From an uncultured Candidatus Saccharibacteria bacterium (GTDB lineage: Bacteria; Patescibacteriota; Minisyncoccia; GWC2-36-17; WO2-46-25), in the NCBI GenBank assembly GCA_964359755.1, contig CAYHUB010000002.1, forward strand, positions 924 through 64,923: a stretch of DNA of 64,000 nucleotides, given 5' to 3'. Position numbers and translations under genes: made by a program. Position 1 is the stretch's first letter, and every line of letters begins with the position of its first letter. Below, piece after piece: positions 1,074 through 49,969 of the stretch. The notes under the pieces are model-generated. The model did no database searches, had not been told where the DNA came from, and worked only from the letters and a program-made list of their open reading frames with translations.

Positions 1074-1123
1074 TCAAGCGTATTTTCTTGATAGTTTCTG
1101 CATTTTCGAGTACTATTTCCTGT

Positions 1124-4100
1124 ATGGAACAAGAAAAAGAAGGGCAAAAATCTCAGCTTGCGCGCATGGAAGAGGAGGTTCTTGCATGGTGGGAAGAAAA
1201 AAAAGTATTCAAGCAGGTTCTCGCAAAACGAAAGAAAGGAAAACTTTTCGTATTTTACGAAGGCCCGCCGACGGCAAACGGCATGCCGCATCCCGGGCAT
1301 GTGATGGGGCGGTGTTTTAAGGATCTTTTTTTGCGGTATAAATCGATGCAGGGGTATTTTGTTCCGCGGCACGCGGGGTGGGATACGCACGGTCTGCCGG
1401 TAGAGATCGAAATAGAAAAAAAGCTCGGTATCGCGAAAAAAGCGGACATCGAGAAATTCGGCATCGGGGAATTCAACCGGTTGTGCAAAGAATCGGTGTG
1501 GAACTATAAAGACGAATGGGAAAAGATGACCCATCGCATCGGGTTTTGGCTTGATATGGATCACCCGTACATCACCTATGACGCGAAGTACATGGAAACG
1601 TTGTGGTGGATCATTGCGCGCATATTTGAAAAAGGGCTGTTGGTGGAGGATTACAAGGTGATGCCGTATTGCGCGCGGTGTGGCACCGGCCTTTCGTCGC
1701 ATGAGCTCGCGCAAGGGTATAAGACGGTGAAAGACAAGTCGGTGTATGTGAAGTTTCCTTTGGTGCGTCATGCGCCCGAAGAGCGTGTGTACGAAAAAGC
1801 AAAACACAAAACAGTGTTTGACGAACATGACGACCCATCGGTGCGCGAATATTTTTTGGTATGGACGACGACGCCCTGGACGCTTCCCGCGAACGTCGCG
1901 CTTGCGGTTCACCCTGATATTACCTATGTAAAAGCAAAAAAAGAAAACGAAGTGCTTATCGTGGCGCGCGATCGTATGCAGGTGCTTGGTGAGGGATGGG
2001 AGATCATGAAGACGATGAAGGGAAAAGAGCTTCTCGGCGAGCGATACGAACAATTATTCACATTTCTTACGCCCGACAAAGACGCGTTTTTTATCGTTGC
2101 GGGTGATTTTGTTTCTGCGGCAGACGGATCGGGGATCGTGCATCTTGCGCCCGCATACGGAGAGGATGATATGGTGATGGCAAAAAAATATGATCTCCCG
2201 GTGTTGCATCCGGTACAGGAAAATGGGGAATTTGCCGCGCCAATCCCGTGGAGAGGGATGTTTGTAAAAAACACCGATGAAGCGATCGTAACTGATCTCA
2301 AAGAGAGAGGGCTTTTCTTTAAAGAGGAAACATACGAACACGAATATCCGTTTTGCTGGCGGTGCGACACGCCCATTTTGTATTATGCGCGGAAATCGTG
2401 GTTCATTACGATGTCCGGCTTGCGGGAGAAATTGATCGAAAATAATAAAAAGGTCAATTGGGTTCCTGCTCATACAAAGGAGGGGCGGTTCGGCGAATGG
2501 CTTGCGCAGGCAAAGGACTGGGCATTTTCCCGCGAGCGGTATTGGGGAACCCCCCTGCCGGTATGGCGGTGCGACGGGTGCGGGAAGATAGAAGCGGTGG
2601 GGAGCGTCGCCGAGCTTGGCGAACGCTCACAGTTGAAGAATCGGTATGTTGCGATGCGCCACGGGCAAGCACTGTTCAATGCAAAACGCGTCGCGGAAAC
2701 ATCGGGGAGAGCGGAAAATCATCTTACGAAAAAAGGAATTCAGGAAAGCAAAGCGTCGCTCGCGCGTTTTACCAAAAAGAATAAAGGAGTTGTCCCTGAT
2801 ATCATCATTACTTCGCCATTTCCGCGTACGCAGGAAACGGCGCACATTACGGCGGAATATTTCGGTATCGCGCCCGAGCGCATCATCACGGACGCGGCGA
2901 TCGCGGAGATTGAGATAGGTGTATTTGACGGCAGGCCGGTGAAAGAATATCACGCGTATTTTTCTTCGTACGAGGAAATGTTTGAAAAACGCCCGCCTGA
3001 GGGCAAGAGCCTGACTGATCTGCGTGTGCGCATGACCGCGTTTTTGAGGCGCATAGAAGAAAAATATGAAGGGAAAACCATTTTTATCATCAGTCATGAG
3101 TATGCGGTGTGGATGTTGGAAACGGCATTGCTCGGATATGACCTTGCAGAAACCGTCGTGGCAAAAAAGAAAAAAGGAGACGATTATATAGCGACCGGGG
3201 AGATCCGCGCATTGCCGAGCGCGCGCTTACCCCTTGATGAAAAAGGATTTTTAGATCTGCATAAACCGCATATTGATGCCATCACCTTTGCGTGCCGAGC
3301 ATGCGAGAAGGGGATAATGAGGCGCGTGCCCGAGGTGTGCGATGTGTGGTTTGATTCCGGCGCGATGCCGTTTGCGCAGGCGCACTTTCCGTTCGCGCAA
3401 GACAGCAAAAAAGCCGGCGCGCAAAAAAGCATCGCACAGCGCATGAAGCAGATCCCGTACCCCGCCGATTTTATCACCGAGGGCGTGGACCAGACGCGCG
3501 GGTGGTTTTATACGCTTCTTGCGGTTGCGACCGCGCTTGACACCGGAATCCCGTATCGCACCGTGGTGTCGCAGGGGCATATTTTGGACAAGCACGGGAA
3601 AAAAATGTCCAAGTCGAAAAAGAATTATACCGATCCGCTTGCAATCGCGGATGCATACGGTATTGATGCGCTCCGGTGGTATTTTTTCGTGGTGAACCCG
3701 GTGGGGGAGCCGAAGCGGTTTGATGAAAAGGACGTGCTTGATGCTCAGCGCAAATCGGTCATGATGCTTATCAATGTCGGTAATTTTCTTAAATCATATG
3801 CGTATGCCGGGCGATTGCCGGCAAAACTTCCGCCGGTGAAAAACTTGCTCGACCGGTGGATCATTTCCCGCATGAACCATACGATTGCCGCAGTGACGGA
3901 AGCCATGGACGCGTATGACGCGCAAACCGCGGGGCGCCATCTTGCGGCGCTTCTCGACGATGTTTCGAATTGGTATATCCGCCGCTCGCGGGAGCGATTC
4001 CAGCTCGCTGAAGACGCACGCGATCATAAGGCCGCAAGCGCGGTGCTTCGCATGGTGTTTGAGCAGACGCTGGTTCTTGCATCACCGTTCATTCCATTCA

Positions 4101-4693
4101 CAACAGAAAAGCTATGGCTGAATATGGGTAAAAAAACAAGCATTCATCTTGAAAAGTATCCGTCTTCGGATAAAAAACGAATTGATAAGAAGCTTGAGTA
4201 TGCTATGATGCATATACGAGAAGCGGCGAGTATGGCGCTTAAAGCGAGAGCGGATGCGCGCATAAAGGTGCGACAGCCGCTGGGAATGCTAACAATCAGC
4301 GGGAAAACGTTTGCAGTCGCAAAAAAGGAACTTCTTCGTCTTCTCAAAGACGAAGTGAACGTGAAAGAGGTTGTCGTGGACGGTGCGCTTGCCGAGGGTA
4401 TCCAACTTGATACGACTATTACACCCGCATTACAAGAAGAAGGAATGATGCGGGAGATCACGCGACACATCCAGCAGGCGCGCAAAGATGACGGACTTAC
4501 GAAACAAGACAGCGTTATTCTCCGTTGTGCCGTTGAGGGAAACGCACGACGCGCGTTTGAAACAGGGAGCGGGCGATTACTGCAGAGGGTTGTCGCGCGC
4601 AACATAGAGTATGTTATGCGGGAAGCCATGAAGAGTCCCCGTGAGATCGAAGGGGAAAATTATCATGTGTGGTTTGAAATACAAAAAATATGA
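1124..4693 (+). CDS. ileS: Isoleucyl-tRNA synthetase (type 2) with an inserted histidine-phosphatase-like domain
   Basis: Class I aaRS motifs are present: P-T-A-N-G-M-P-H-P-G-H (HIGH region), KMSKS, zinc knuckles WRCDGCG and CRACEKG. I placed the start at MEQEKEG (1124) by alignment to EEEVLAWW-type N-termini; the track ORF starts at 1088. TGA stop overlaps the recO start. Confidence 0.9.
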   Translation: MEQEKEGQKSQLARMEEEVLAWWEEKKVFKQVLAKRKKGKLFVFYEGPPTANGMPHPGHVMGRCFKDLFLRYKSMQGYFVPRHAGWDTHGLPVEIEIEKKLGIAKKADIEKFGIGEFNRLCKESVWNYKDEWEKMTHRIGFWLDMDHPYITYDAKYMETLWWIIARIFEKGLLVEDYKVMPYCARCGTGLSSHELAQGYKTVKDKSVYVKFPLVRHAPEERVYEKAKHKTVFDEHDDPSVREYFLVWTTTPWTLPANVALAVHPDITYVKAKKENEVLIVARDRMQVLGEGWEIMKTMKGKELLGERYEQLFTFLTPDKDAFFIVAGDFVSAADGSGIVHLAPAYGEDDMVMAKKYDLPVLHPVQENGEFAAPIPWRGMFVKNTDEAIVTDLKERGLFFKEETYEHEYPFCWRCDTPILYYARKSWFITMSGLREKLIENNKKVNWVPAHTKEGRFGEWLAQAKDWAFSRERYWGTPLPVWRCDGCGKIEAVGSVAELGERSQLKNRYVAMRHGQALFNAKRVAETSGRAENHLTKKGIQESKASLARFTKKNKGVVPDIIITSPFPRTQETAHITAEYFGIAPERIITDAAIAEIEIGVFDGRPVKEYHAYFSSYEEMFEKRPPEGKSLTDLRVRMTAFLRRIEEKYEGKTIFIISHEYAVWMLETALLGYDLAETVVAKKKKGDDYIATGEIRALPSARLPLDEKGFLDLHKPHIDAITFACRACEKGIMRRVPEVCDVWFDSGAMPFAQAHFPFAQDSKKAGAQKSIAQRMKQIPYPADFITEGVDQTRGWFYTLLAVATALDTGIPYRTVVSQGHILDKHGKKMSKSKKNYTDPLAIADAYGIDALRWYFFVVNPVGEPKRFDEKDVLDAQRKSVMMLINVGNFLKSYAYAGRLPAKLPPVKNLLDRWIISRMNHTIAAVTEAMDAYDAQTAGRHLAALLDDVSNWYIRRSRERFQLAEDARDHKAASAVLRMVFEQTLVLASPFIPFTTEKLWLNMGKKTSIHLEKYPSSDKKRIDKKLEYAMMHIREAASMALKARADARIKVRQPLGMLTISGKTFAVAKKELLRLLKDEVNVKEVVVDGALAEGIQLDTTITPALQEEGMMREITRHIQQARKDDGLTKQDSVILRCAVEGNARRAFETGSGRLLQRVVARNIEYVMREAMKSPREIEGENYHVWFEIQKI

Positions 4694-5271
4694 GTCAGCG
4701 GTCTACGATTGCCCTTGTGGTAAAAAGAAAAAACAAAGGAGAGCACGATCAGCTGCTTACGCTGTTTACGAAGCGATACGGAAAGATCGAGTTTATATGC
4801 CGCGGAATCCGGAAAAAAGAAGCAAAGCTTGCCGGGCACTTGGGGTTGTTGTGTCTTTCAGACGTGAGTTTCGTGCTGGGGAAACACACCAAGGTGCTTA
4901 CCTCCGCGTGCAATCGCGAACATTTTGCCGCGATCAAAAAAGATCTTTTGAAGCTGAAGGCGGCGCAGCGCATTATGAAGCTTCTTGACGCGTACACGAT
5001 CACGGAGGAAAAGGACGAAGCGATCTTTAACCTTGTCGTCGGCGCGCTTGATTATTTGAATCGGCGGGAGATGACAACGCTTGAGCTGAAATTCTTCCTC
5101 CGTTATTTTGAATTTAAATTTTTAAGCGTGCTAGGATATGAGCCGGAGGACAAGACGATCATGCGGGCGTTCGGCAATCAGCATATCGCGCTTTCTGAGG
5201 ATGACCTGGACACGATGGAAGAGGTCTTTGACCGTCATTTTAAAGATATTTACGGAGCAGTGAACATATAA
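4690..5271 (+). CDS. recO: DNA repair protein RecO
   Basis: 193 aa. The N-terminal OB region (VVKRKNKGEHDQLLTLFTKRYGKIEF) and the LGYEP motif are typical of RecO. 4-bp ATGA overlap with ileS. Confidence 0.7.
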   Translation: MSQRSTIALVVKRKNKGEHDQLLTLFTKRYGKIEFICRGIRKKEAKLAGHLGLLCLSDVSFVLGKHTKVLTSACNREHFAAIKKDLLKLKAAQRIMKLLDAYTITEEKDEAIFNLVVGALDYLNRREMTTLELKFFLRYFEFKFLSVLGYEPEDKTIMRAFGNQHIALSEDDLDTMEEVFDRHFKDIYGAVNI

Positions 5272-5274
5272 ACT

Positions 5275-7161
5275 ATGGACAGTCGTTTAGAAGAATTTGA
5301 AAAAAAACTATATACCCGGAAAGAGGATGAGACGGTGAAGCAGAAAGGGTATGAGGTATATAAAGAAGAAGACGCTACGCAGATGCAGGGCAGATGGGAA
5401 AAGAGCGAGCCGGCTTCTTTGTCTCTGGGAGCAAGAAAAATACGCGTTATGCCGATCCTTGCGGCGGCGTTTTTTGCGCTTATGATAAGCGGGGGGTATT
5501 ATCTTTTCACGCGCGAACAGCCGTTTGACGCACAAAGCGTGTACGGCGAGATATCCGGTCCGGAGCGCGTATCGTCGGGCGATGAAGTGTCGTATACGAT
5601 TACGTATCGGAACAATACAAATGTCGCGCTACGAGGGGGAAGCATGGTGTTTACATGGCCGGAAGACTCGGTGGCGCTTGATGAGGGCGACGCAGCGGCA
5701 AGGGAGGTAAGGGAGGAGATAGGCATGATCGTTCCGGGACAAGAAAAAAGTGCGACCTTTAAAAGAAGAATATATGGGATGAAGGATGAGCAAAAAGAGG
5801 TTTCTGCGGTGTTTCGGTATACGCCCGAGAATGTTGCGAAAGAGATCGAGGATAAAAAAACAAAGGCGCTCATGATCGTAGCAACGCCGCTCGCGCTTAT
5901 CATTCAAGCACCCGGGCAAGCGGTTTCCGATAAGGAGATCGAAATCGCCGTGGAGTATCAGAATCAGTCCGATGCGTCTTTTCCCGACATGGAGTTGCGT
6001 GCGGTATATCCGAAAGATTTTACCTTTGTGTCCGCCGATCCGGCTCCTTCATCAGAAAATAATGTGTGGAAGATCGGTGATATTGAAGGGAGAGAGAGCG
6101 GAACAATAAAAATAAAAGGAAGCTTCTTTGGCGCGCAGGGAGAGACGAAATCAGTGTATATGGAGCTTGGTGTTAAGGGGGATAATAACGCGTTCATGCA
6201 ATATGCCCGTGCAGACAGCACGGTGGCCATTGCGTCATCGGCACTATTCGTTTTTTTAACAGCCAATGATTCGCGTGATTATGCCGCAAATCCCGGGGGA
6301 TCCGTTCAATTCAAAGTACATTACAAAAACACCACGAATGTGCAGATCCCGAATGTCACGATATTGGCGAATATTGATAAGACATATATAGAGATAAAAA
6401 CGCTGTCCGTGCAGTGGGGAGTGATTGACGGAAGGACGAATTCGATCATCTGGAACCCAGTCAGCGTTCCGGAGCTTGCGGTGCTTGACCCGAAGGAAGA
6501 AGGAGTCGTGTCGTTTTCCGCAGCATTAAAAACCGGATTTTTACCGAAGAATTTTTCAGATAAAAACTTGACCGTTGTTGCGCGTACGCGCATTACTGCC
6601 GCAACATCGCCCGAGAGTTTGAGCGGTTTGCCGCTTGAAAGCAAAGACGAGGTCAGCGTGAAAATAAATACGCAATTCTCGTTCAATGAAAAAGCGTATT
6701 TCCAGGACGGACTTCTCCAGAACACCGGTCCATTTCCTCCAACGGTTGGCCAACGGACGACCGTTGGGATATCATGGCAGTTATCAAGTACTATCAACGA
6801 CGTTGATGAAGTTGAGGTGACTGCGGTAGTGCCGCCGAACGTCGAATGGACGGGAAATGTGTATCCTCAGGATGCAAGTATAACGTATGATCTCGACCGA
6901 GGGGTAATCCGATGGAAGCCGGCGAGGGTGTTTGCGGGCACCGGCATCCTTCTTTCTCCTTTGCGCGTTGATTTTCAGCTTGCGTTCACGCCCGCGGACG
7001 CGCATATAGGGCAGGTGATTAATTTAATATCCGGCGCAACGCTCAAAGCGGTGGACGCATTTACCGGAACGCAGATGGACCGGCAAGTGTCTCCGGTCAA
7101 TACGGATCTGTTAAATTCCATGAAAAGAGAACAAGGAAGAGTTATTGGAACGGGTTTTTAG
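5275..7161 (+). CDS. Membrane-anchored hypothetical protein with repeated beta-sandwich (DUF11/CARDB-like) domains
   Basis: 628 aa. One N-terminal TM segment (VMPILAAAFFALMISGGYYLF) followed by several roughly 110-aa repeats rich in T/S/N/V. No catalytic motif is visible. Confidence 0.4.
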   Translation: MDSRLEEFEKKLYTRKEDETVKQKGYEVYKEEDATQMQGRWEKSEPASLSLGARKIRVMPILAAAFFALMISGGYYLFTREQPFDAQSVYGEISGPERVSSGDEVSYTITYRNNTNVALRGGSMVFTWPEDSVALDEGDAAAREVREEIGMIVPGQEKSATFKRRIYGMKDEQKEVSAVFRYTPENVAKEIEDKKTKALMIVATPLALIIQAPGQAVSDKEIEIAVEYQNQSDASFPDMELRAVYPKDFTFVSADPAPSSENNVWKIGDIEGRESGTIKIKGSFFGAQGETKSVYMELGVKGDNNAFMQYARADSTVAIASSALFVFLTANDSRDYAANPGGSVQFKVHYKNTTNVQIPNVTILANIDKTYIEIKTLSVQWGVIDGRTNSIIWNPVSVPELAVLDPKEEGVVSFSAALKTGFLPKNFSDKNLTVVARTRITAATSPESLSGLPLESKDEVSVKINTQFSFNEKAYFQDGLLQNTGPFPPTVGQRTTVGISWQLSSTINDVDEVEVTAVVPPNVEWTGNVYPQDASITYDLDRGVIRWKPARVFAGTGILLSPLRVDFQLAFTPADAHIGQVINLISGATLKAVDAFTGTQMDRQVSPVNTDLLNSMKREQGRVIGTGF

Positions 7162-8584
7162 CAAGAAAATGGCGGTACAAAAAATGGAAGAGCAAATAAC
7201 ACTGGAAGATATTGTTTCGTTGTGCAAACGCAGAGGATTCGTATATCCGTCGTCTGACATCTATGGCGGGTTTGCCGGCGTGTATGATTACGGGCACTAC
7301 GGTATTTTATTGAAAAATAATATCCAGGCGGCGTGGTGGCGGCACATGGTGCAGCTGCGCGATGATGTGTACGGACTCGATAGCGCTATTTTTATGCACC
7401 CCACAACATGGGTGGCATCCGGGCATGTGGGGGGGTTCAATGATCCCCAGGTGGACTGCAGGAAGTGCAAGAATCGCATGCGCGCGGATCACCTCCTTGA
7501 AGCGTTTGGCATCAACGCCGACAAGGCGACGATTGAATACATCAATGCCGAGCTCGACCGACTGAGGGAAAAAAAGGAACTGAAATGCGCGACGTGCGGC
7601 TCTTCTGATCTGACACAGGCCCGGGTCTTTTCGCTCATGGTGAAATCAAATCTCGGTTCTCCCACCGAGGAGCTGACCGACGAGAACGCGGTATATTTGC
7701 GCCCCGAAACGTGCGGTGGCATTTATTTGGAATATAAAAACACCATTGATTCCCTGCATCCGAAACTGCCGTTCGGTATCGCGCAGGTTGGCAAAGCATT
7801 TCGCAACGAAATCGTCGCGCGCCAGTTTGTGTTCCGCACACGGGAGTTCGAACAAATGGAAATGCAATATTTTCTGCATCCGGATGATATGAAAAAAAGC
7901 TACGAGATGTGGAAGCAGGAACGATGGCAGTGGTATGTGGCATACGGGATCCCGAAAGAAAAGATACGGTGGTATCAGCACGAAAAGCTCGCGCACTATG
8001 CGTCGGAGGCGTACGACATCGAGTTTTCGTTCTCGTCGCTCGGAGGCTTTAAAGAAGTGGAGGGCATTCATGCGCGCGGCGACTGGGACTTGTCGCAGCA
8101 CGCGAAATATTCCGGCGTTGACCTGTCGTATACGGATGAAGCTACCAAACAAACATTCATCCCGCATATTATGGAAACATCCGTCGGGCTGGGGCGGCTG
8201 TTTTTGATGTTTCTTGATCATGCCTACACCCAGGAAGAGGTGAACGGGGAAACACGGACGGTACTGAAGCTCGATAAACGGCTGGCTCCCGTGAAAGTTG
8301 CGGTGTTCCCGCTGTTGCGCAACAAGCCGGAGCTCGTGCAAAAAGCCCGCGCCGTGTATGATATACTCAAAGGCGTTTTTATGTGCGAGTTCGATGACAA
8401 CGGCAACATCGGCAAACGATACCGGAGACAGGACGAGATCGGTACGCCGTGGTGCCTTACTATTGATTTTCAGACGCTTGAGGATGGCACGATCACGGTG
8501 CGCGACCGCGACACGCTCGCGCAGGAGCGCGTGGCAATCGCCAGCTGTGCCGCATACTTACAAGAAAAATATGAATCCCGTTAG
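7145..8584 (+). CDS. glyQS: Glycyl-tRNA synthetase (dimeric class II, GlyQS type)
   Basis: Motifs RRGFVYPSSDIYGG and WVASGHVGGFNDPQVDC are present, and the 479-aa size fits GlyQS. The track start is TTG at 7145 with AAGGAAGAG 6 nt upstream. Alternative ATG starts lie at 7169 and 7184. Confidence 0.85.
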   Translation: MERVFSKKMAVQKMEEQITLEDIVSLCKRRGFVYPSSDIYGGFAGVYDYGHYGILLKNNIQAAWWRHMVQLRDDVYGLDSAIFMHPTTWVASGHVGGFNDPQVDCRKCKNRMRADHLLEAFGINADKATIEYINAELDRLREKKELKCATCGSSDLTQARVFSLMVKSNLGSPTEELTDENAVYLRPETCGGIYLEYKNTIDSLHPKLPFGIAQVGKAFRNEIVARQFVFRTREFEQMEMQYFLHPDDMKKSYEMWKQERWQWYVAYGIPKEKIRWYQHEKLAHYASEAYDIEFSFSSLGGFKEVEGIHARGDWDLSQHAKYSGVDLSYTDEATKQTFIPHIMETSVGLGRLFLMFLDHAYTQEEVNGETRTVLKLDKRLAPVKVAVFPLLRNKPELVQKARAVYDILKGVFMCEFDDNGNIGKRYRRQDEIGTPWCLTIDFQTLEDGTITVRDRDTLAQERVAIASCAAYLQEKYESR

Positions 8585-8699
8585 AAGTCCTTGGCATAAA
8601 ATTTCTTAGAAATTTTATGTGAGACGGTAACAAGGGGAAATACGCGAAACATTATTTACTTTTATGACAATGATAATACTAAAATACGAACTTCTAACG
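8576..8699. repeat. Intergenic segment bracketed by 12-bp inverted repeat CCCGTTAGAAGT / ACTTCTAACGGG (second copy)
   Basis: cccgttagaagtcc at 8576-8589 contains the glyQS TAG stop. gaacttctaacggg at 8686-8699 abuts the ATG of the M16 peptidase. The interior holds a perfect 12-bp palindrome cataaaatttct/agaaattttatg. Confidence 0.6.
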
Positions 8700-8701
8700 G
8701 G

Positions 8702-9988
8702 ATGAACAGTAAGCTTACCTATCATAAAACAACACTGGCAAACGGCGTGCGGGTGATCACGGTGCCGATGAAAAACACCTCGGCCGTTACTTCGATCGTG
8801 TTCGTAAAAACAGGATCACGCCATGAATATCGGAAAGAGAACGGCATTTCGCATGTGCTTGAGCACATGCTTTTTCAAGGCACAAAAAAGCGCCCGGATA
8901 AGATCACGCTGAAAAGAGAACTTGATCGGATCGGCGCACAAAGTAATGCCTATACGTCGCAAGACCACACCGCATATTACGTGAAGGCGGATGCGAAGCA
9001 TCTTGATCTGAGCTTAGATATTCTTTCGGATATGTATTTACATCCGCTGTTTAAAAAAGAAGCGCTTGAAAAAGAACGGCGCGTGGTGGCGGAAGAGATC
9101 CATATGGTTAAAGACACGCCGCAAAGGCAGGTATGGGATAATTTTTATCAGTTGCTGTATCCTGATAATTCACTCGGGTGGTCCATCGCGGGACCAGCAA
9201 AAACCGTGCTGTCGCTCACAAACAAAGACCTTTTTTCATATCTTGCGCGAGGATATGTCGCAAAAAACACAGTCATTGTTGTTGCGGGAAACACGAATGA
9301 GCGGCAAGTAATTACAAAAGTAAAAAAATATTTCCGCGGTATGCAAAAAGGCAGGTTATCTGCGTATGCGCCGGTCAGCGATAAACAAAAGGAGGCGAGA
9401 GTCCACAGTGAATACAAAAAGATAGGTCAGGCGCATTTAGTCGTTGGTGTGCCCGGATATTCCGCACTTGATAAACGGCGGTACGCACTTGATGTGCTGT
9501 CGGCGATTTTGGGCGGGTATTCCAGTTCGCGGCTTGTGGTGTCCGTGCGGGACGACCTTGGACTTGCGTATTATGTCGGAGCGGACGTGAATTATCATGA
9601 AGATACGGGCTCATTTTCCGCATATGCGGGAATCAATTTGCGCAATATAGACCTTGGCATTACAGCGATCATGAAAGAATTTCAAAAGGCGGCAACGCGT
9701 CCTATTACAAAAAAAGAGATCGATGATGCAAAAAGCCACATTGAAGGAGCGTTCAGTTTGCGGCTTGAAGCATCGGATAGCGTTGCGGTTGGCGCGGGAT
9801 GGTCTGAGCTGATGACCGGGAGAATAGAAACGCCGGATGAATATGTGAAAAACATCAAGAAAGTAAGCGCTGAGGATCTGCAGGCGGTGGCAAAAGACAT
9901 TTTCAAAACCGAAAAACTTAATTTTGCGATCATCGGGCCGTTTCAAAAAAAAGATGCAAAGCGTTTTCAATCATTACTTCATATATAA
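8702..9988 (+). CDS. M16 family zinc peptidase (pitrilysin/insulinase-like)
   Basis: Inverted zinc-binding motif HVLEHMLFQGT (HxxEH) near the N-terminus. 428 aa. Confidence 0.8.
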   Translation: MNSKLTYHKTTLANGVRVITVPMKNTSAVTSIVFVKTGSRHEYRKENGISHVLEHMLFQGTKKRPDKITLKRELDRIGAQSNAYTSQDHTAYYVKADAKHLDLSLDILSDMYLHPLFKKEALEKERRVVAEEIHMVKDTPQRQVWDNFYQLLYPDNSLGWSIAGPAKTVLSLTNKDLFSYLARGYVAKNTVIVVAGNTNERQVITKVKKYFRGMQKGRLSAYAPVSDKQKEARVHSEYKKIGQAHLVVGVPGYSALDKRRYALDVLSAILGGYSSSRLVVSVRDDLGLAYYVGADVNYHEDTGSFSAYAGINLRNIDLGITAIMKEFQKAATRPITKKEIDDAKSHIEGAFSLRLEASDSVAVGAGWSELMTGRIETPDEYVKNIKKVSAEDLQAVAKDIFKTEKLNFAIIGPFQKKDAKRFQSLLHI

Positions 9989-9999
9989 AAAGAAAATAC

Positions 10000-11379
10000 A
10001 TGAATAACCAATATCCAAAACTTACGTTTTGCGGAGGCGCGGGCGGCGTAACGGGCGCATGTTATTTACTCGAAACAGAGCATACGAAAATACTCGTTGA
10101 TTGCGGCATGTTTCAGGGATCGCGTTTTGCCGAAATACTCAACAGCGATCCGTTTCCGTTTGATCCCAAAGAGATCGCTGCCGCGCTCATCACGCATGCG
10201 CATATCGATCACACCGGGCGTTTGCCCAAGTTGTGCAAGGACGGATTTCACGGGAATATTTTTGCAACGATGCCGACGCTTGATTTTGCGAAGGCGCTTT
10301 TGATCGATTCAGAACATGTGATCGCCATGGAAGCAAAACATGAGGGGCAAGAGCCGTTCTATACCGCAAAGGATGTCGAGCTCGTGTTTACGCTTACCAA
10401 GCCCGTTGAATACGGAATGATGGTGCGCGTCACCGAAGATGTGGCGTGTAAATTTTACGACGCAGGGCATATTTTAGGGTCCTCCATCATCGAGATCTTT
10501 GTTACGACGGGGGATAAAAAAATAAAGATCGTATTTACCGGAGATCTTGGTAATTCGCCCGGACCGCTGTTGCGGGACACGCATAAAGAAACCGATGCGG
10601 ATTATGTGGTGATCGAGTCGGCATACGGAGATAGATTGCACGAGCAGGAAGGAGAAAGAAAAGATTCTCTGGAAGATGTCATCGAGGAGACGATCGCCGC
10701 GGGTGGCGTGCTTATGATCCCGGCGTTTGCCACCGAGCGCACGCAAGAGTTGTTGTATGAATTCAATGATCTGGTGGAGAACGGCCGCATCCCTAAAGTT
10801 CCGGTATTCATTGATTCTCCTCTCGCGATCAGGATCACGGAAGTGTATAAACGCTATTCGTCGTTTTACGACGAGGAAGCCCTGCGTTTGCTGAAGTCGG
10901 GCGACGAGATATTCAGCTTTCCCGGATTGAAATTTACGCCGACGGTGGAAGATTCCAAACACATCAACAGCGTGCCCTCGCCCAAGATCATTCTTGCGGG
11001 CTCGGGCATGTCGCACGGCGGGAGGATCGTATATCACGAAAAATTATATTTACCCGACCCGAAAAGCACCCTGCTCATTATCGGGTATCAGATCAAAGGA
11101 TCGCTCGGACGGCGCCTGCTTGATGGGGAGAAAATGGTGAGGATCCACGGGAGCGATGTGACGGTCCGCGCAAAGATCAAGCAGATCTCGGGGTATTCGG
11201 CGCACGCCGACCAGCAAGGACTGTATCGGTGGGTGGAGCCGATGCGGCTGTCGATCAAGAAATTATTTGTCGTACAAGGAGAAGAGAGCGCGTCAGAGAT
11301 ATTTTCACAGATCATAAAAGACCGGCTCGCGATAGACGCGGTGGTGCCGAAGGTCGGCGACTCCTTTGTTTTGGAATAA
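10000..11379 (+). CDS. MBL-fold beta-CASP ribonuclease (RNase J / CPSF-like)
   Basis: HAHIDHTGRLP metallo-beta-lactamase motif, followed by beta-CASP-type motifs (D..G.S; H..D) later in the protein. 459 aa. Confidence 0.6.
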   Translation: MNNQYPKLTFCGGAGGVTGACYLLETEHTKILVDCGMFQGSRFAEILNSDPFPFDPKEIAAALITHAHIDHTGRLPKLCKDGFHGNIFATMPTLDFAKALLIDSEHVIAMEAKHEGQEPFYTAKDVELVFTLTKPVEYGMMVRVTEDVACKFYDAGHILGSSIIEIFVTTGDKKIKIVFTGDLGNSPGPLLRDTHKETDADYVVIESAYGDRLHEQEGERKDSLEDVIEETIAAGGVLMIPAFATERTQELLYEFNDLVENGRIPKVPVFIDSPLAIRITEVYKRYSSFYDEEALRLLKSGDEIFSFPGLKFTPTVEDSKHINSVPSPKIILAGSGMSHGGRIVYHEKLYLPDPKSTLLIIGYQIKGSLGRRLLDGEKMVRIHGSDVTVRAKIKQISGYSAHADQQGLYRWVEPMRLSIKKLFVVQGEESASEIFSQIIKDRLAIDAVVPKVGDSFVLE

Positions 11380-38995: not shown

Positions 38996-40501
38996 ATGGC
39001 AGAACAAAAAAAATTCTATGTGACCACGTCCATTGCGTATGTAAACGCTCCGCCGCATATCGGATATGCGATGGAGCTTGTGCAGGCGGATGTTCTTGCG
39101 CGATATCACCGTCTTTTGGGAGAAGACGTGTTCTTGCTTACCGGCACCGATGAGCACGGTAAAAAAGTAGCCGAAGCGGCGGCAAAAAACGCTATGGCGC
39201 CGCGCGCGTACGTCGATATGATAGCGGCTCGGTTTGATGCGCTCTGCTTTGCGCTCGGTGTTTCCGAATATCATTTTATCCGCACGAGCGACCAAACAAC
39301 ACACACGCCTGTTGTCCTTGATATGTGGCGAAAAATGGCGGACGCGGGCGATATCTATAAAGGAGAGTACGAAGGGCGCTACTGCGTCGGGTGCGAGGCG
39401 TTTTTGCGCGAAGCGGAAATAGATGATGAAAAACGCTGTCGTATCCATACAAAAGAAACGCAGGCGGTACGAGAAGAGAATTATTTTTTCAAATTTTCAA
39501 AATACGCGAAAAAGGTTGAACAGCTTATCCGCGACAATGTAATTCATATTGTTCCCGAGTTCCGCAAGAAAGAGGCGCTCAATCTTTTTTCCGAAGAAGG
39601 GGTGCGCGACTTCAGCGTGTCGCGGCCGAAAGAAAGCGTGGAGTGGGGGATCCCGGTGCCGGGTGACGAACGCCAGCTGATCTACGTATGGGTGGACGCG
39701 CTCTTAAATTATGTATCGGGCGCGGGCTACGGCACAGGTGATTTTAACAAACGATGGCCGCCTGACGCACAGGTGATCGGAAAAGATATTCTGCGCTTTC
39801 ACGCGATGATGTGGCCGGCGTTTTTGCTCGCATGCGGATTCTTGGAAAACAATCTGCCGAAGATGCTTGCGGTGCACGGGCATATTTCCATAGAAGGGCA
39901 GAAAATGTCCAAGTCGCTGGGGAATGTGGTTGACCCCGTGGAGCTAATCGCCAAATACGGAAAAGAGCCGGTGCGGTACTATGTATTGCGCGAGATGCCT
40001 TCGGATGATGACGGGGATTTTTCGTTCGCGCGGTTTGAAGAACGGTATACGGCGGATCTGCAAAACGGGCTCGGTAATTTGGTCTCGCGCGTGACGGCGC
40101 TTGCACTCACGCACCCCGAGGCCGTGAAAGGCATTAGGGTAAACGGAGTTACCGCGCACGCAAAGGAAACATACCAAAAATATGAAAACGCGATCAATGC
40201 GTTTCAGCTTCACCGCGCGCTTGAGCAAGTATGGACATTGGTTGAACAATCAAATAAAGCAGTGGAAGACGCAAAGCTGTGGGATCTTGCTGTAAGGGAC
40301 CCAAGAGAGGCGAATACAGTATTTACGGAGCTTGCACATAATTTTGCCGCTATCGCGTATATGCTCGCGCCGTTTCTTCCGGAGACCGCAGAAAAAATCG
40401 CTATTGCGATCGGCGCGGATATCACGGCGCTTGCCGGTAATACCGGTGTCGCAGTGTGCTTTCAAAAGCCGGCGATATCTCTTTTTCCGAAGCTACAATA
40501 A
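38996..40501 (+). CDS. metG: Methionyl-tRNA synthetase
   Basis: PHIGYAMELVQADVLAR HIGH-region variant, zinc knuckle CVGCEAF...CRIH, KMSKSLGN. 501 aa, with no C-terminal tRNA-binding extension. Confidence 0.9.
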   Translation: MAEQKKFYVTTSIAYVNAPPHIGYAMELVQADVLARYHRLLGEDVFLLTGTDEHGKKVAEAAAKNAMAPRAYVDMIAARFDALCFALGVSEYHFIRTSDQTTHTPVVLDMWRKMADAGDIYKGEYEGRYCVGCEAFLREAEIDDEKRCRIHTKETQAVREENYFFKFSKYAKKVEQLIRDNVIHIVPEFRKKEALNLFSEEGVRDFSVSRPKESVEWGIPVPGDERQLIYVWVDALLNYVSGAGYGTGDFNKRWPPDAQVIGKDILRFHAMMWPAFLLACGFLENNLPKMLAVHGHISIEGQKMSKSLGNVVDPVELIAKYGKEPVRYYVLREMPSDDDGDFSFARFEERYTADLQNGLGNLVSRVTALALTHPEAVKGIRVNGVTAHAKETYQKYENAINAFQLHRALEQVWTLVEQSNKAVEDAKLWDLAVRDPREANTVFTELAHNFAAIAYMLAPFLPETAEKIAIAIGADITALAGNTGVAVCFQKPAISLFPKLQ

Positions 40502-47278: not shown

Positions 47279-49969
47279 ATGGAAAAACTTTTTTCGTACC
47301 GTATATATTACTTCTTGTTCGCACTAGCCGGACTTTTTCTGTTTTGCGGAGCGCACTATGCGTACGCGTATATGGCGCCGATAGATTGTGCAGGACCGTA
47401 TCTTCTCGGGCAGAAGTACGATGCATCTCCGCCCCCAACCCCTAAAAACGGTCAATTTGCCTGTGCTATCGGGACGGCAACCGGTGATACGCCGGTACCC
47501 TCGATTCCCTCGGGAAACTTCTATCGCTGCGAGGAAACCATGGCGAACCAGTTGTATTGCCGACATTATATAAATCCGACCACTGATTATTATACCTGTA
47601 CGTATTATGGAACCGGAGCTCATGTCGGAAGCGATTTTTTTCAGAGAATAATATTTGACAATTGCACCTACTCGGTTATTCCACCGACTATTTCGTTTAC
47701 CGCCCCTTCTTCTATTAATTTAGGCCAGTCCGCAACGCTTTCATGGAATGTGACAAACGCGGCAACCTGCACCGCGACGGGAGGGTGGTCCGGTGCCAAA
47801 GCTCTTCCTTCCGGCTCAGAAACGGTAACACCCACCACCACGACGACCTATACGCTATCGTGCACGGGATCAACCACCTTAAGCCAATCGCGCACCGTCA
47901 CGGTCAACATCCCTGACACCACCCCTCCAACCAGCCCGACCAATCTCGCCGCGTTTGCGGTTGCTACGTCCCAGATAAACCTCACCTGGACTGCGTCCAC
48001 CGACACGGGCGGGTCGGGGCTTGCGGGGTATCGTATTGAACGGTGCATGGGAGTGGGGTGCGCGAGTTTTGCCGAAATCGCCACTTCTCCTATTGCAAGT
48101 TACAGTAACATCGGTCTTGCGCCATCCACGAGTTACAGCTATCGCGCGCGCGCGTATGACGGCGCAGGAAATACCAGCGGATATTCCAATATCGACTCCG
48201 ACACCACGCCCGCGCCGGCCGACACCACGCCCCCTTCCGCGCCATCGCTTAGCGGTGTCGTATTTTCTCCCACGCAGATCGATCTTTCTTGGACCGCATC
48301 CACCGACAACGTTGGCGTTACGGGGTATCGCGTGTATCGCAACACCACGCTCATATATACGGCAGGGAGCGCTACAACGATATATTCAGATATGGGCCTC
48401 ATACCTTCCACTTCGTATAGTTATTACGTGTCGGCGTATGATAGCGCGGGAAACGCCACGCAATCTAACACGGTAACTATCGCGACGCCCGCAATACCCG
48501 ACACCACGCCGCCGGTATTTATATTCAATTCTCCCGGCTCGACGCTTCTTGCGGGTACGACGTCTGCGACGCTCGGAGGGACTACGAATGAAAACGCAAC
48601 ATGCCGATATAATGAAAACACCGACACCACGTTTGACTTGATGACGCCATTTAGCACCACGGGAACGACAAGCCATACTAAACTAATCCCGCAACTACCC
48701 TTACAACTGACCGACGGCACCGTGTATTATTATTATGTAAAATGTCGCGATACGGCGCCTATTCCCAATACTAATCCAGTAGGTATTCCGTATATGTTTC
48801 AGGTTGATTCCCCATTGCCCGACACGACGCCTCCTATCATTTCAAACGGATCGCCCTCAGGCGTGCTTGCCGCAGGTACCACATCAGTAACGATGAGCGT
48901 GGTCACCGATGACGATGCGTATTGCCGATATAATCAAGACAGCGATACTACGTTTGACCTTATGACAAATAATTTCACCAGTTCCGATCTTAAAAACCAT
49001 ACGGTACCGCTTATAGGCCTTACCAACGGCTCATCGTATTTGTATTACGTGAGGTGCCAGAACACGCCGGGAGGGTATGCGAACACGAGCGGCTATCCTA
49101 TCTCGTTTGTCATTGCGTTTCCCGCAAACATGAATCCGATGGCATTGATCGTCATAACGCCATCGACATCGGGCACCGCGCCGTTTGCGATATCCGCCAA
49201 CGGAAGCGGAAGCTACGATTCAGACGGAAGTATTGCGCAATATACGTGGAGTTGGGGGGACGGCTCGCCAAACGCGACCGGCGTTGGGTCGTCGCATACC
49301 TACGCCACCGCGGGTACCTACGCACTTTCGCTTAAGGTGGTTGATAATCAAGGCGGCAGCAACACCGCCTACGAGACGATCGCGGTTTCTGCGGCGACCG
49401 TGCTTCCCCCTCCGAGTTCAGTGAATGTGTGCACCGCCGAATGTACGCATACCTCCGACTGCATAGCTCTTTACGGTTCCTCCTCTATCTGCGGTCCTTC
49501 GAAGTTTTGCACCGCGCAAGGGGGCGGCGAGGGCCCGTTCCGTTCTGATTTTTACCTCTCGCGCACCGACGGCTCCATGAGCCAGCAATCGCCCGCCACA
49601 TTCCCCGCGGGAACCGCTTCTGTTATCATGAGCATGAAAACAGACGTGAACGCGGAGTGCCAATATTCGACAGTCAGCAACACGCTCTATGATGCAAGCG
49701 CGATGAAAACATTTACAAGCACCGGCACACTCGATCATTCGGTCACGCTGACCGGCCTCGCAAGTATGACCGCGTCAGCGCACACATACTATGTCCGCTG
49801 CCGCGATCTTGAGAGCGGTATCGTGAATGACACCGATCAAGCCATATCGTTTATTACGGGTGCGCCGATTATTGTGTCGGGTCCGGACCCTTACATGTGC
49901 CTCATTAATGCTGATTTTGTCCGCGACAACATTCCGTATGTGTTTGATATTTGCATGCCGAAACCATGA
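47279..49969 (+). CDS. Large secreted surface protein with FN3, PKD and novel Cys-bracketed repeats (896 aa)
   Basis: Signal peptide; two FN3-like modules (INLTWTASTDTGGSGLAGYRIERC, IDLSWTASTDNVGVTGYRVYRN); three to four repeats of the CRY...TTFDLM...GTTSH...YYYV.C type; a PKD-like module (YTWSWGDGSP...GTYALSLKVVDNQGGSN). Confidence 0.7.
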   Translation: MEKLFSYRIYYFLFALAGLFLFCGAHYAYAYMAPIDCAGPYLLGQKYDASPPPTPKNGQFACAIGTATGDTPVPSIPSGNFYRCEETMANQLYCRHYINPTTDYYTCTYYGTGAHVGSDFFQRIIFDNCTYSVIPPTISFTAPSSINLGQSATLSWNVTNAATCTATGGWSGAKALPSGSETVTPTTTTTYTLSCTGSTTLSQSRTVTVNIPDTTPPTSPTNLAAFAVATSQINLTWTASTDTGGSGLAGYRIERCMGVGCASFAEIATSPIASYSNIGLAPSTSYSYRARAYDGAGNTSGYSNIDSDTTPAPADTTPPSAPSLSGVVFSPTQIDLSWTASTDNVGVTGYRVYRNTTLIYTAGSATTIYSDMGLIPSTSYSYYVSAYDSAGNATQSNTVTIATPAIPDTTPPVFIFNSPGSTLLAGTTSATLGGTTNENATCRYNENTDTTFDLMTPFSTTGTTSHTKLIPQLPLQLTDGTVYYYYVKCRDTAPIPNTNPVGIPYMFQVDSPLPDTTPPIISNGSPSGVLAAGTTSVTMSVVTDDDAYCRYNQDSDTTFDLMTNNFTSSDLKNHTVPLIGLTNGSSYLYYVRCQNTPGGYANTSGYPISFVIAFPANMNPMALIVITPSTSGTAPFAISANGSGSYDSDGSIAQYTWSWGDGSPNATGVGSSHTYATAGTYALSLKVVDNQGGSNTAYETIAVSAATVLPPPSSVNVCTAECTHTSDCIALYGSSSICGPSKFCTAQGGGEGPFRSDFYLSRTDGSMSQQSPATFPAGTASVIMSMKTDVNAECQYSTVSNTLYDASAMKTFTSTGTLDHSVTLTGLASMTASAHTYYVRCRDLESGIVNDTDQAISFITGAPIIVSGPDPYMCLINADFVRDNIPYVFDICMPKP

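Follow-up and report, generated by a model that had tools for sequence, protein, structure and literature searches.

Few enzymes have been studied as thoroughly as the aminoacyl-tRNA synthetases. The modules of the class Ia synthetases, such as the CP1 editing domain and the leucine-specific domain of LeuRS, are whole domains that are tolerated in loops of the Rossmann-fold catalytic domain. To our knowledge, these modules act on the aminoacyl-adenylate, on the aminoacyl-tRNA, or in tRNA binding; none of them is a phosphatase, nor are we aware of an aminoacyl-tRNA synthetase that contains a phosphatase module. A curated precedent for a bacterial isoleucyl-tRNA synthetase (IleRS) with an additional enzyme-like domain, an N-acetyltransferase, is the NCBIfam model "ileS_w_GNAT" (NF040702). 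The protein described here scores 325 bits against this model, which has a cutoff of 1999, and no model for an IleRS combined with a phosphatase came up when the whole protein was scanned against NCBIfam. The literature searched on aminoacyl-tRNA synthetases or IleRS with a histidine phosphatase or PGAM, and on synthetases of the Patescibacteria/CPR, likewise held no description of such an architecture.

On the phosphatase side, the closest characterized proteins are the short branch-1 histidine phosphatases PspA (PDB 4IJ5), PhoE/YhfR (1H2E and 1EBB), CobC (6E4B and 6NRU), Rv2419c (4QIH), and HFP (9MMH). Of these, 4IJ5 is a phosphoserine phosphatase, 6E4B and 6NRU an α-ribazole phosphatase, 4QIH a glucosyl-3-phosphoglycerate phosphatase, and 9MMH a phosphatase of the riboflavin pathway. 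The domain studied here has a similar fold, the same size of about 200 amino acids, and the same RHG...R...E...H set; its sequence resembles theirs weakly, though significantly (E = 4e-8 to 6e-6, 18–24% identity). These phosphatases are free-standing metabolic proteins, whereas the present domain is found inside or next to an IleRS. Its best NCBIfam match, at 69 bits against a cutoff of 326, is the bifunctional RNase H/acid phosphatase PRK07238 (Rv2228c/RnhC type), in which a CobC-like histidine phosphatase is also joined covalently to an enzyme acting on nucleic acids; no NCBIfam equivalog cutoff is reached. PRK07238 is, however, an end-to-end fusion with RNase H, while the present protein has an internal insertion in an aminoacyl-tRNA synthetase.

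The gene in question, ileS, lies at positions 1124–4693 of the + strand in the 64,000-nucleotide stretch of DNA that was analyzed (the window); all features given below are on the same strand. A preliminary description of this DNA had noted a continuous frame of 1201 amino acids. The frame is indeed single and unbroken, running from 1088 to 4693 when counted from a TTG at 1088, but the true start is likely the ATG at 1124, which makes the protein probably 1189 residues long. Its product scores 894 bits against the isoleucine–tRNA ligase equivalog TIGR00392 (cutoff 621), and Pfam places tRNA-synt_1, Anticodon_1, and DUF5915 domains along it. Outside the insert, it is fully homologous to the type-2 enzymes of Thermus thermophilus (1ILE, E = 2e-239) and Priestia megaterium (IleRS2, 8C8U, E = 9e-229), sharing with them the HIGH and KMSKS signatures, the CP1 editing motifs, two CxxC knuckles, the anticodon-binding domain, and DUF5915. 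Type-2 bacterial IleRS is eukaryote-like and mupirocin-tolerant. The exception models for the MupA and MupB mupirocin-resistance enzymes are matched at 787 and 762 bits, below their cutoff of 1900.

The HIGH signature of the class I active site reads HPGH (1289–1300), in place of which most relatives have PG[IVL]HH. This GxHH variant was considered as a mark of the insert-bearing enzymes and rejected, because it is present in some non-CPR type-2 IleRS as well. The KMSKS loop (3602–3616) is kept in the homologues, and the editing motifs WTTTPW and GxGxVHxAPxxGxDD vary little or not at all in the homologue alignment. With these signatures intact, positions 1124–4693 are best explained, as far as sequence can tell, as encoding a functional housekeeping type-2 IleRS. 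The AlphaFold2 (AF2) model of the full-length protein has a pLDDT of 91.2 and a pTM of 0.85, with values of 92–97 for the blocks of the insert. No tRNA genes were found in the window.

The insert lies in the loop between the two CxxC knuckles, in the second half of the Rossmann fold. The first zinc knuckle (C483 and C486, 2570–2581, within WRCDGCG at 2564–2584) aligns with Cys461/Cys464 of the T. thermophilus enzyme and is invariant in 114 homologues, and the second (C724 and C727, 3293–3304, within FACRACEKG at 3287–3313) aligns with Cys502/Cys504. The two are separated by about 37 residues in 1ILE (Cys464 to Cys502) and by 237 residues in the window protein, owing to the phosphatase. The alignment to 1ILE stops at residue 502 of the query and restarts at residue 703, while the numbering of 1ILE advances from 480 to 483, and exactly 200 residues (503–702, positions 2630–3229) are therefore without a counterpart. 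The same segment has no counterpart in the 16 IleRS, ValRS, and LeuRS chains of the PDB alignment that span the region, 8C8U included. The preliminary description, which had placed about 200 extra residues between the knuckles at 2620–3250, thus bracketed the insert correctly. The frame continues across both junctions (...ELGERS|QLKNRY... and ...PSARL|PLDEKG...) without a compositional break. An intein was considered and rejected, in agreement with the earlier view: the Pfam matches of the ileS product include no Hint, intein, or endonuclease domain, and the insert ends in ...SARL followed by Pro, and so lacks the His-Asn plus Cys/Ser/Thr of a C-terminal splice junction.

Pfam assigns residues 523–688 (TTG numbering), flanked by two stretches of tRNA-synt_1, to His_Phos_1 (PF00300) with E = 3e-26 and 92.7 bits, for a cutoff of 21.7. 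A phmmer search with the insert against the six-frame open reading frames of the window, MetRS and GlyRS included, returned no second copy. Modeled alone, the insert is predicted to fold independently as a confident domain (AF2 pLDDT 96, pTM 0.92), and Foldseek matches this model with a probability of 1.00 and TM scores of 0.70–0.77 to PspA, CobC, GpgP, PhoE, and HFP, that is, to the PGAM-type α/β fold. The Pfam match, the PDB alignment, and the AF2 models thus agree with the histidine phosphatase in a type-2 IleRS that had been proposed from the letters alone.

The epithet "PGAM-like" used in that proposal holds at the level of the superfamily but not in the sense of a mutase. The model of the cofactor-dependent phosphoglycerate mutase (dPGM), TIGR01258, gives 25.7 bits against a cutoff of 81.7, no mutase model reaches its cutoff, and TIGR01258 and the GpmA-type models NF0107xx/NF002217 cover just the first 70 or so residues of the insert. 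The dPGM structures 1QHF and 1BQ3 align only over insert residues 6–77, and the mutase motifs ERHYG, RR, and HGN of E. coli GpmA are replaced, by eye, by EIEIG, nothing, and SHE. An assignment as dPGM was accordingly rejected; judged from sequence and predicted fold, the insert resembles the short phosphatases PspA, PhoE, CobC, and GpgP.

The motifs quoted in the preliminary description are all present, and the catalytic set is complete. The RHG motif with R512 and the nucleophile H513 (2657–2665) is invariant in the homologue alignment and present in 144 of 144 insert-bearing IleRS and in all 54 stand-alone relatives. The second phosphate-binding arginine, R568 (2825–2827, within SPFPRTQETA at 2813–2842), is also invariant. 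The general acid E595 (2906–2908), presumably the counterpart of Glu83 in PhoE and of Glu89 in dPGM, directly precedes IEIGVFDG (2909–2932) and is Glu or Asp in all 144 insert-bearing proteins (121 Glu, 23 Asp) and all 54 stand-alone relatives. The second catalytic histidine, H658 (3095–3097, in ISHEY, within ISHEYAV at 3089–3109), is invariant in the 144 and kept in 52 of the 54. The full Arg-His-Arg-(Glu/Asp)-His set is thus found in 144/144 insert-bearing and 52/54 stand-alone proteins, and the catalytic residues of the insert do not vary across 114 homologues with identities down to 44%. On average, the identity to the query is 39% for the insert and 41% for the anticodon/C-terminal part. 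On sequence and model grounds, the insert most likely works as a phosphohydrolase of the kind represented by PhoE, PspA, CobC, and GpgP; where an active module and a degenerate insertion had both been envisaged, the intact catalytic set strongly favors the former.

The inserted form is widespread. A PF00300 insert is present in all of the 120 best IleRS homologues (93–44% identity, from Parcubacteria lineages) and in 10 GTDB Patescibacteria ileS loci; 70 type-2 ileS loci that belong to other phyla lack it. Among Parcubacteria-type Patescibacteria, the insert is a trait of the whole lineage. An insert-based profile (A2), of which the window insert is the seed, finds 669 representatives at E ≤ 1e-30. 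Among 153 full-length IleRS, 143 share the insertion site of the window protein (site A). The phosphatase has entered IleRS at no fewer than two to four distinct sites, one of them in a separate IleRS lineage without Cys knuckles, and some IleRS carry two copies. In the numbering of the query, site A corresponds to 502/703, another site to about 728, site B to 755–778, and site C to 894–898; for two loci (L166 and L169), complete genes were confirmed in contigs. About a dozen database proteins that start with Met and consist of the phosphatase and the C-terminal half of IleRS might suggest a split synthetase, but they were rejected as truncation artifacts, because the example that was traced (P0194) starts 42 nucleotides from the end of its contig.

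The nearest relatives of the insert include stand-alone genes adjoining an ileS without insert, which is a new observation. Among the best 150 matches of the A2 profile, 149 of them with sequence, 54 are stand-alone proteins of 177–220 residues (about 190). Such a gene directly precedes an ileS that lacks the insert in L001 and L004. Of 73 informative metagenome loci, 67 show this arrangement, and the other 6 have no ileS downstream of the phosphatase gene. The distance to ileS is at most 150 nucleotides in 57 of the 67 loci and commonly 2–6 nucleotides, the junction in locus L087 (phosphatase at 5001–5570, ileS from 5573) reading TAG-gt-ATG; the two genes are apparently translationally coupled. 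In an NJ tree without support values, the IleRS of the operon type fall into a single clade, and they were sampled with a biased probe, so the adjacency may be partly inherited synteny rather than independent evidence. In the window, ileS is followed by recO (4690–5271, Pfam RecO_N/RecO_C), which overlaps its stop codon, and the neighborhood phosphatase/ileS–recO–X–glyS–M16 peptidase is conserved, its order being shared with L001 and L168. We define the IleRS-associated phosphatase of Patescibacteria as a family by a strong match to A2 together with a location inside or immediately upstream of ileS, and the window insert belongs to it. The clade-wide insert, its separate-gene equivalent upstream of ileS, and the several insertion sites all go beyond the preliminary description.

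Taken together, with a probability of about 0.78, we read the locus as encoding a housekeeping IleRS that carries an inserted phosphatase, predicted to be active and functionally coupled to the synthetase. The inserted unit, a complete branch-1 histidine phosphatase about 200 residues long, sits between the equivalents of T. thermophilus residues 480 and 483; it would physically act with IleRS, and selection would keep the two tethered or co-expressed. Because relatives have either the insert or a phosphatase gene adjoining ileS, the two enzymes probably cooperate, in a way that has not yet been described.

The domain could instead be an ordinary small-molecule phosphatase (for phosphoserine, a sugar phosphate, or a cofactor pathway) with no relation to translation. 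In a lineage with reduced genomes, it would have been fused into an essential gene with constitutive expression, at a surface loop that tolerates insertions. The loop between the zinc knuckles does vary and lies at the surface, and the nearest characterized relatives in both sequence and fold are metabolic phosphatases. The phosphatase also occurs in other contexts, including tandem doublets away from ileS. It is fused to ArgRS in 3 clusters, for instance in L168, which has no ileS nearby; this is probably a fusion with the upstream neighbor in the order argS–phosphatase–ileS–recO, and with only 3 clusters the link to ArgRS was set aside. It is further fused to TsaC in 4 clusters (e.g., P0177). 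The latter fusion would hint at a connection between t6A and tRNA-Ile, but it counts as weak evidence, because only 4 clusters are involved and the TsaC of CPR is fused to many unrelated domains, namely six other domain types that include Ogt-like, TruB, CPDase, Nudix, and GNAT. Odd and apparently opportunistic fusions of this kind are many in CPR, which again suits an incidental association. IleRS is nevertheless the dominant partner, with 153 full-length proteins against the 3 ArgRS and 4 TsaC clusters. Entry at several sites, including in the lineage devoid of Cys knuckles, and a separate gene that in most loci lies 2–6 nucleotides upstream of ileS also speak against such an association, and the simple loss of a stop codon between neighbors would not produce an insertion midway inside a catalytic domain. 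We consider an association unrelated to translation rather improbable.

Much less probable still is a pseudoenzyme, in which the fold would be kept without turnover as a structural or ligand-sensing regulatory module of IleRS. Many appended domains of aminoacyl-tRNA synthetases are noncatalytic, and the conserved Glu of the "GES" motif is Lys in the window protein. This replacement is seen only there and in its two closest relatives, however, and the nucleophile, both arginines, the acid, and the second histidine are kept in every one of the 144 proteins over 44–93% identity. Pseudoenzymes normally lose at least the nucleophile or the acid, and a phosphate-binding sensor would need neither an invariant acid nor both histidines. 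Finally, an artifact in which a frameshift or an assembly error has joined two genes, or a selfish element such as an intein, has nothing but the unusual protein length in its favor and is hardly credible given the continuous frame, the even composition, the lack of Hint, intein, or endonuclease domains, and the recurrence of the architecture across NCBI, JGI, ENA, and Logan assemblies, where over 140 independent homologues display it.

If the phosphatase does act together with IleRS, a tentative first guess for its substrate is a by-product or inhibitor of the adenylate reaction (AMP, another nucleotide monoester, or PPi), which would be cleared locally so that aminoacylation continues; we know of no branch-1 histidine phosphatase that hydrolyzes PPi. 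Somewhat less probable would be a blocking phosphate or pyrophosphate on the 3′ end of the tRNA, or a phosphate on IleRS itself. It is conceivable, though doubtful at present, that aminoacylation throughout a large radiation of bacteria includes a further, so far unrecognized catalytic step supplied by the phosphatase, which would make IleRS a bifunctional synthetase-phosphatase. In one version, a blocking 3′-phosphate or pyrophosphate would be taken off the tRNA, countering toxins that pyrophosphorylate the CCA end. In a second, a phosphate set on IleRS by a toxin kinase would be removed, and in a third, AMP or PPi would be destroyed on the enzyme, keeping charging irreversible in cells whose economy is rich in PPi and AMP; the literature searched gave no usable statement on inorganic pyrophosphatase in CPR. 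In any of these versions, if true, the phosphatase would be essential for a normal supply of Ile-tRNA.

For annotation, metabolic reconstructions of CPR genomes could count the embedded His_Phos_1 domain as a phosphoglycerate mutase by mistake, and several insert-bearing proteins are named by NCBI just "class I tRNA ligase family protein". Three kinds of evidence tie the phosphatase to IleRS, namely its conservation in every close relative sampled, over many lineages of Parcubacteria, its several entry sites, and a gene-neighbor equivalent of the Rosetta-stone type. This tie is open to testing through an H513A mutant and through the two-gene version, in which the partners can be separated. If the coupling is functional, it would point to an unknown requirement of translation in these ultra-small symbiotic bacteria, such as product clearance, repair of tRNA ends, or protection from toxins.

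The present analysis shows that the window encodes a housekeeping type-2 isoleucyl-tRNA synthetase (IleRS) whose Rossmann fold bears, in a surface loop, a histidine phosphatase that folds on its own and is catalytically complete. It also shows a family-wide genetic link between this phosphatase and IleRS. Residues are numbered from the ATG at nt 1124, which gives a 1189-aa protein (earlier TTG-based numbers are these plus 12). The protein scores 894 bits against the NCBIfam ileS equivalog (cut-off 621), and Pfam places His_Phos_1 (PF00300; E = 3e-26, 92.7 bits vs a cut-off of 21.7) between two pieces of tRNA-synt_1, with Anticodon_1 and DUF5915 also present. In the alignment with T. thermophilus IleRS (1ILE), the query stops at 502 and restarts at 703, while 1ILE passes from 480 to 483; it therefore contains 200 additional residues (nt 2630-3229), flanked by knuckle 1 (C483/C486, Cys461/464 of 1ILE) and knuckle 2 (C724/C727, Cys502/504). 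Of the solved IleRS, ValRS and LeuRS chains compared, none of those covering the region aligns to this segment. The preliminary description had proposed some 200 extra residues between the zinc knuckles, a histidine-phosphatase domain in them, a continuous frame and no intein, and each of these is borne out: the + strand ORF (1088-4693) is uninterrupted and shows no break in base composition, the window IleRS has no Hint/intein domain in Pfam, and the C-terminal splice junction (His-Asn plus Cys/Ser/Thr) is absent from the insert. The HIGH signature of the window IleRS (nt 1289-1300) is the canonical HPGH; in the alignment, PG[IVL]HH takes its place in the majority of relatives with the insert and also in some type-2 IleRS from outside the CPR. 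The GxHH variant is reportedly linked to mupirocin hyper-resistance in IleRS2.

Compared with PDB sequences, the insert alone matches the short histidine phosphatases PspA (4IJ5, E = 4e-8) and PhoE (1H2E). Its scores stay below every NCBIfam equivalog cut-off; the highest, 69 bits vs 326, is to the family of bifunctional RNase H/acid phosphatases, in their phosphatase half. The full-length AlphaFold2 model (114 homologues) has a pLDDT of 91.2 and a pTM of 0.85, with 92-97 pLDDT in the insert, and the isolated domain is modeled confidently as an independent unit (pLDDT 96, pTM 0.92). The Foldseek neighbors (TM 0.70-0.77) are the riboflavin-pathway HFP, PspA, Rv2419c GpgP, CobC and PhoE, phosphatases that have the fold and ~200-aa size in common with the insert at 18-24% identity. 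On the basis of these matches, models and neighbors, we assign the insert to the phosphatase type of the superfamily and exclude the mutase type. The initial label of PGAM-like histidine phosphatase is hence kept as to superfamily and dropped as to mutase type: GpmA-type dPGM models (TIGR01258, NF0107xx) match the first 70 insert residues alone, and the fold neighbors are phosphatases.

Selection maintains the active site. Over 114 IleRS homologues (93% to ~44% identity), the insert has no invariant positions other than R512, H513, G538, S564, R568 and H658; the two Arg that bind phosphate and the two catalytic His are among them. The catalytic residues persist in a larger set of 144 single-insert IleRS: both Arg and both His occur in 144/144, and the acid is Glu in 121 and Asp in 23. 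The mean identity to the query is 39% for the insert, compared with 62% for the catalytic core, 53% for the editing domain and 41% for the anticodon/C-terminal part; the insert is thus under ordinary purifying selection and not decaying. Of the homologues, 96% have Glu in the 'GES' motif of the phosphatase; only the window protein and the two relatives nearest to it have Lys there (K628, nt 3005-3007).

Homologue comparison, proposed beforehand as the check on the spread of the insert, gives PF00300 in 120/120 best IleRS homologues from a 5.8-billion-protein collection. Their named hosts are Candidatus Azambacteria (closest, 79%), Zambryskibacteria, Nealsonbacteria, Wildermuthbacteria, Giovannonibacteria, Pacebacteria and 'Parcubacteria/Patescibacteria group'. 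In a GTDB species-genome sample, the insert lies within ileS at 10 loci (Yanofskybacteria, Spechtbacterales, Paceibacteria, Minisyncoccia, Patescibacteria group, one Peregrinibacteria-labelled MAG, and two labelled merely 'bacterium'); one Patescibacteria locus, L023, is without it. Type-2 ileS of other lineages in that sample, including Chloroflexota, Bacillota, Actinomycetota, Ignavibacteria, Cloacimonadota, Gemmatimonadota and an Asgard archaeon, have a phosphatase within ±3 kb at 0/70 loci. The Candidatus Peregrinibacteria-labelled MAG (L009) is the sole insert-bearing match labelled outside the Parcubacteria group; its ileS has a single in-frame TAG at about nt 3546, which could stem from a sequencing error, mark a pseudogene or be recoded.

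The point at which the domain is inserted was determined for 153 full-length IleRS. The domain occupies the zinc-knuckle loop, as in the window (site A), in 143 of them; elsewhere it lies just past the second knuckle (about q728, window protein numbering), at site B (q755-778, following the WFDSG...PFAQ segment) or at site C (q894-898, preceding the anticodon-binding domain). Several IleRS have double copies, and P0138 (1419 aa, complete within its contig) reads synthetase-phosphatase-synthetase-phosphatase-anticodon domain. P0261, likewise complete, has its insert at site B and belongs to an IleRS lineage entirely without Cys knuckles. Rare hosts with a C-terminal phosphatase are ArgRS (3 clusters) and TsaC (4 clusters), and tandem phosphatase doublets exist, one not adjoining ileS. 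Proteins combining a phosphatase with the IleRS C-half were rejected as contig-edge artefacts (one example traced). In P0121 (1161 aa), the N-terminal part of IleRS is followed by histidine-phosphatase domains, three to four in tandem, and the C-terminal part of IleRS is missing; truncation or degeneration of the gene may explain this, or an error of assembly. TsaC (Sua5/YrdC, t6A pathway) of Patescibacteria (P0273-P0381) is fused to a wide range of domains, Ogt-like PF01035 in most, others being TruB, 2H/CPDase phosphoesterase, Nudix, GNAT, DNA glycosylase and His_Phos_1.

The separate-gene equivalent of the insert is a newly recognised finding. An insert-profile search of 1.84 billion representative proteins gave 669 matches at E <= 1e-30; among the best 150 analysed (149 with sequence) are insert-bearing IleRS and 54 stand-alone proteins of 177-220 aa. 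Mean identity is 37% both within and between the classes, and nearest neighbors interleave. Two stand-alone genes could be placed in context, and each immediately precedes an insert-less ileS: the order is argS ... phosphatase - ileS (955 aa) - recO at L001, and L004 has the same junction of phosphatase and ileS. Six stand-alone sequences, used as seeds for a metagenome scan, yielded 80 loci, 73 with sufficient downstream sequence: an insert-less ileS starts <=150 nt downstream in 57/73, commonly 2-6 nt past the stop (at L087, ...AAC TAG gt ATG ACT...), lies within 2.5 kb in another 10, and is absent from the available downstream sequence in 6. At one exception, L086, a defence island (5621-10419; EcoRI-type adenine methylase, AbiU2 HEPN, GmrSD/HNH, NYN nuclease) directly follows the phosphatase, where ileS normally lies. 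In an NJ tree with inserts removed and no support values, the IleRS next to separate phosphatase genes form one clade nested among insert-type lineages, which hints, within a probe-biased sample, that the separate gene is the derived state. Many of these IleRS combine MGVHHA with 'EMHKS' at the position of KMSKS.

The window order ileS-recO-DUF11 protein-glyS-M16 peptidase agrees with that of the stand-alone loci. The block from recO through a large surface-type protein (DUF11) and glyS to the M16 peptidase (4690-9988) recurs at L168 (6001-13035), where the large protein is DUF7619; it is conserved downstream of a phosphatase-bearing synthetase, be it IleRS or, at L168, where ileS is missing from this place, ArgRS::phosphatase. 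The insert is absent from the window MetRS (about 38999-40498) and GlyRS (7145-8584), ARAGORN finds no tRNA gene across the 64 kb, and a large ORF of 2210 aa lies at 49948-56577 (+).

Both parts belong to known families, each recognised by its own family model, and none of the curated models searched matches the combination; an NCBIfam 'IleRS with GNAT domain' model exists, whereas the NCBIfam scan of the window protein gave no IleRS-plus-phosphatase model. The architecture was not described in a full-text literature search, and the sequences are already public, several named just 'class I tRNA ligase family protein'. The IleRS-phosphatase feature is real and widespread, and appears to be undescribed.

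Because of the fusion at multiple sites, the duplication within IleRS and the tight coupling when separate, the phosphatase is predicted to be active and to work in complex with IleRS. Small phosphomonoesters are the substrates of its relatives; at an aaRS, AMP or other nucleotides would be the obvious examples, and IleRS, ArgRS and TsaC all form acyl-adenylates and release PPi. For these reasons we tentatively favor (probability about 0.3) a phosphatase that would locally remove a phosphorylated compound arising as a by-product of adenylation or inhibiting it. As the next option, somewhat less likely, it would take a blocking phosphate off the tRNA 3' end, or a phosphate off IleRS itself. The main rival, an unrelated metabolic phosphatase merely riding in an essential gene, has to be weighed against the same fusions and coupling and seems improbable. 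A pseudo-enzyme, given the unfailing R, H, R and H, is very unlikely, and an artefact, given the unbroken frame and 120/120 homologues, hardly deserves consideration. What gives the IleRS-phosphatase feature its interest is the linkage evidence, through which a functional partnership of the two enzymes can be put directly to the test.
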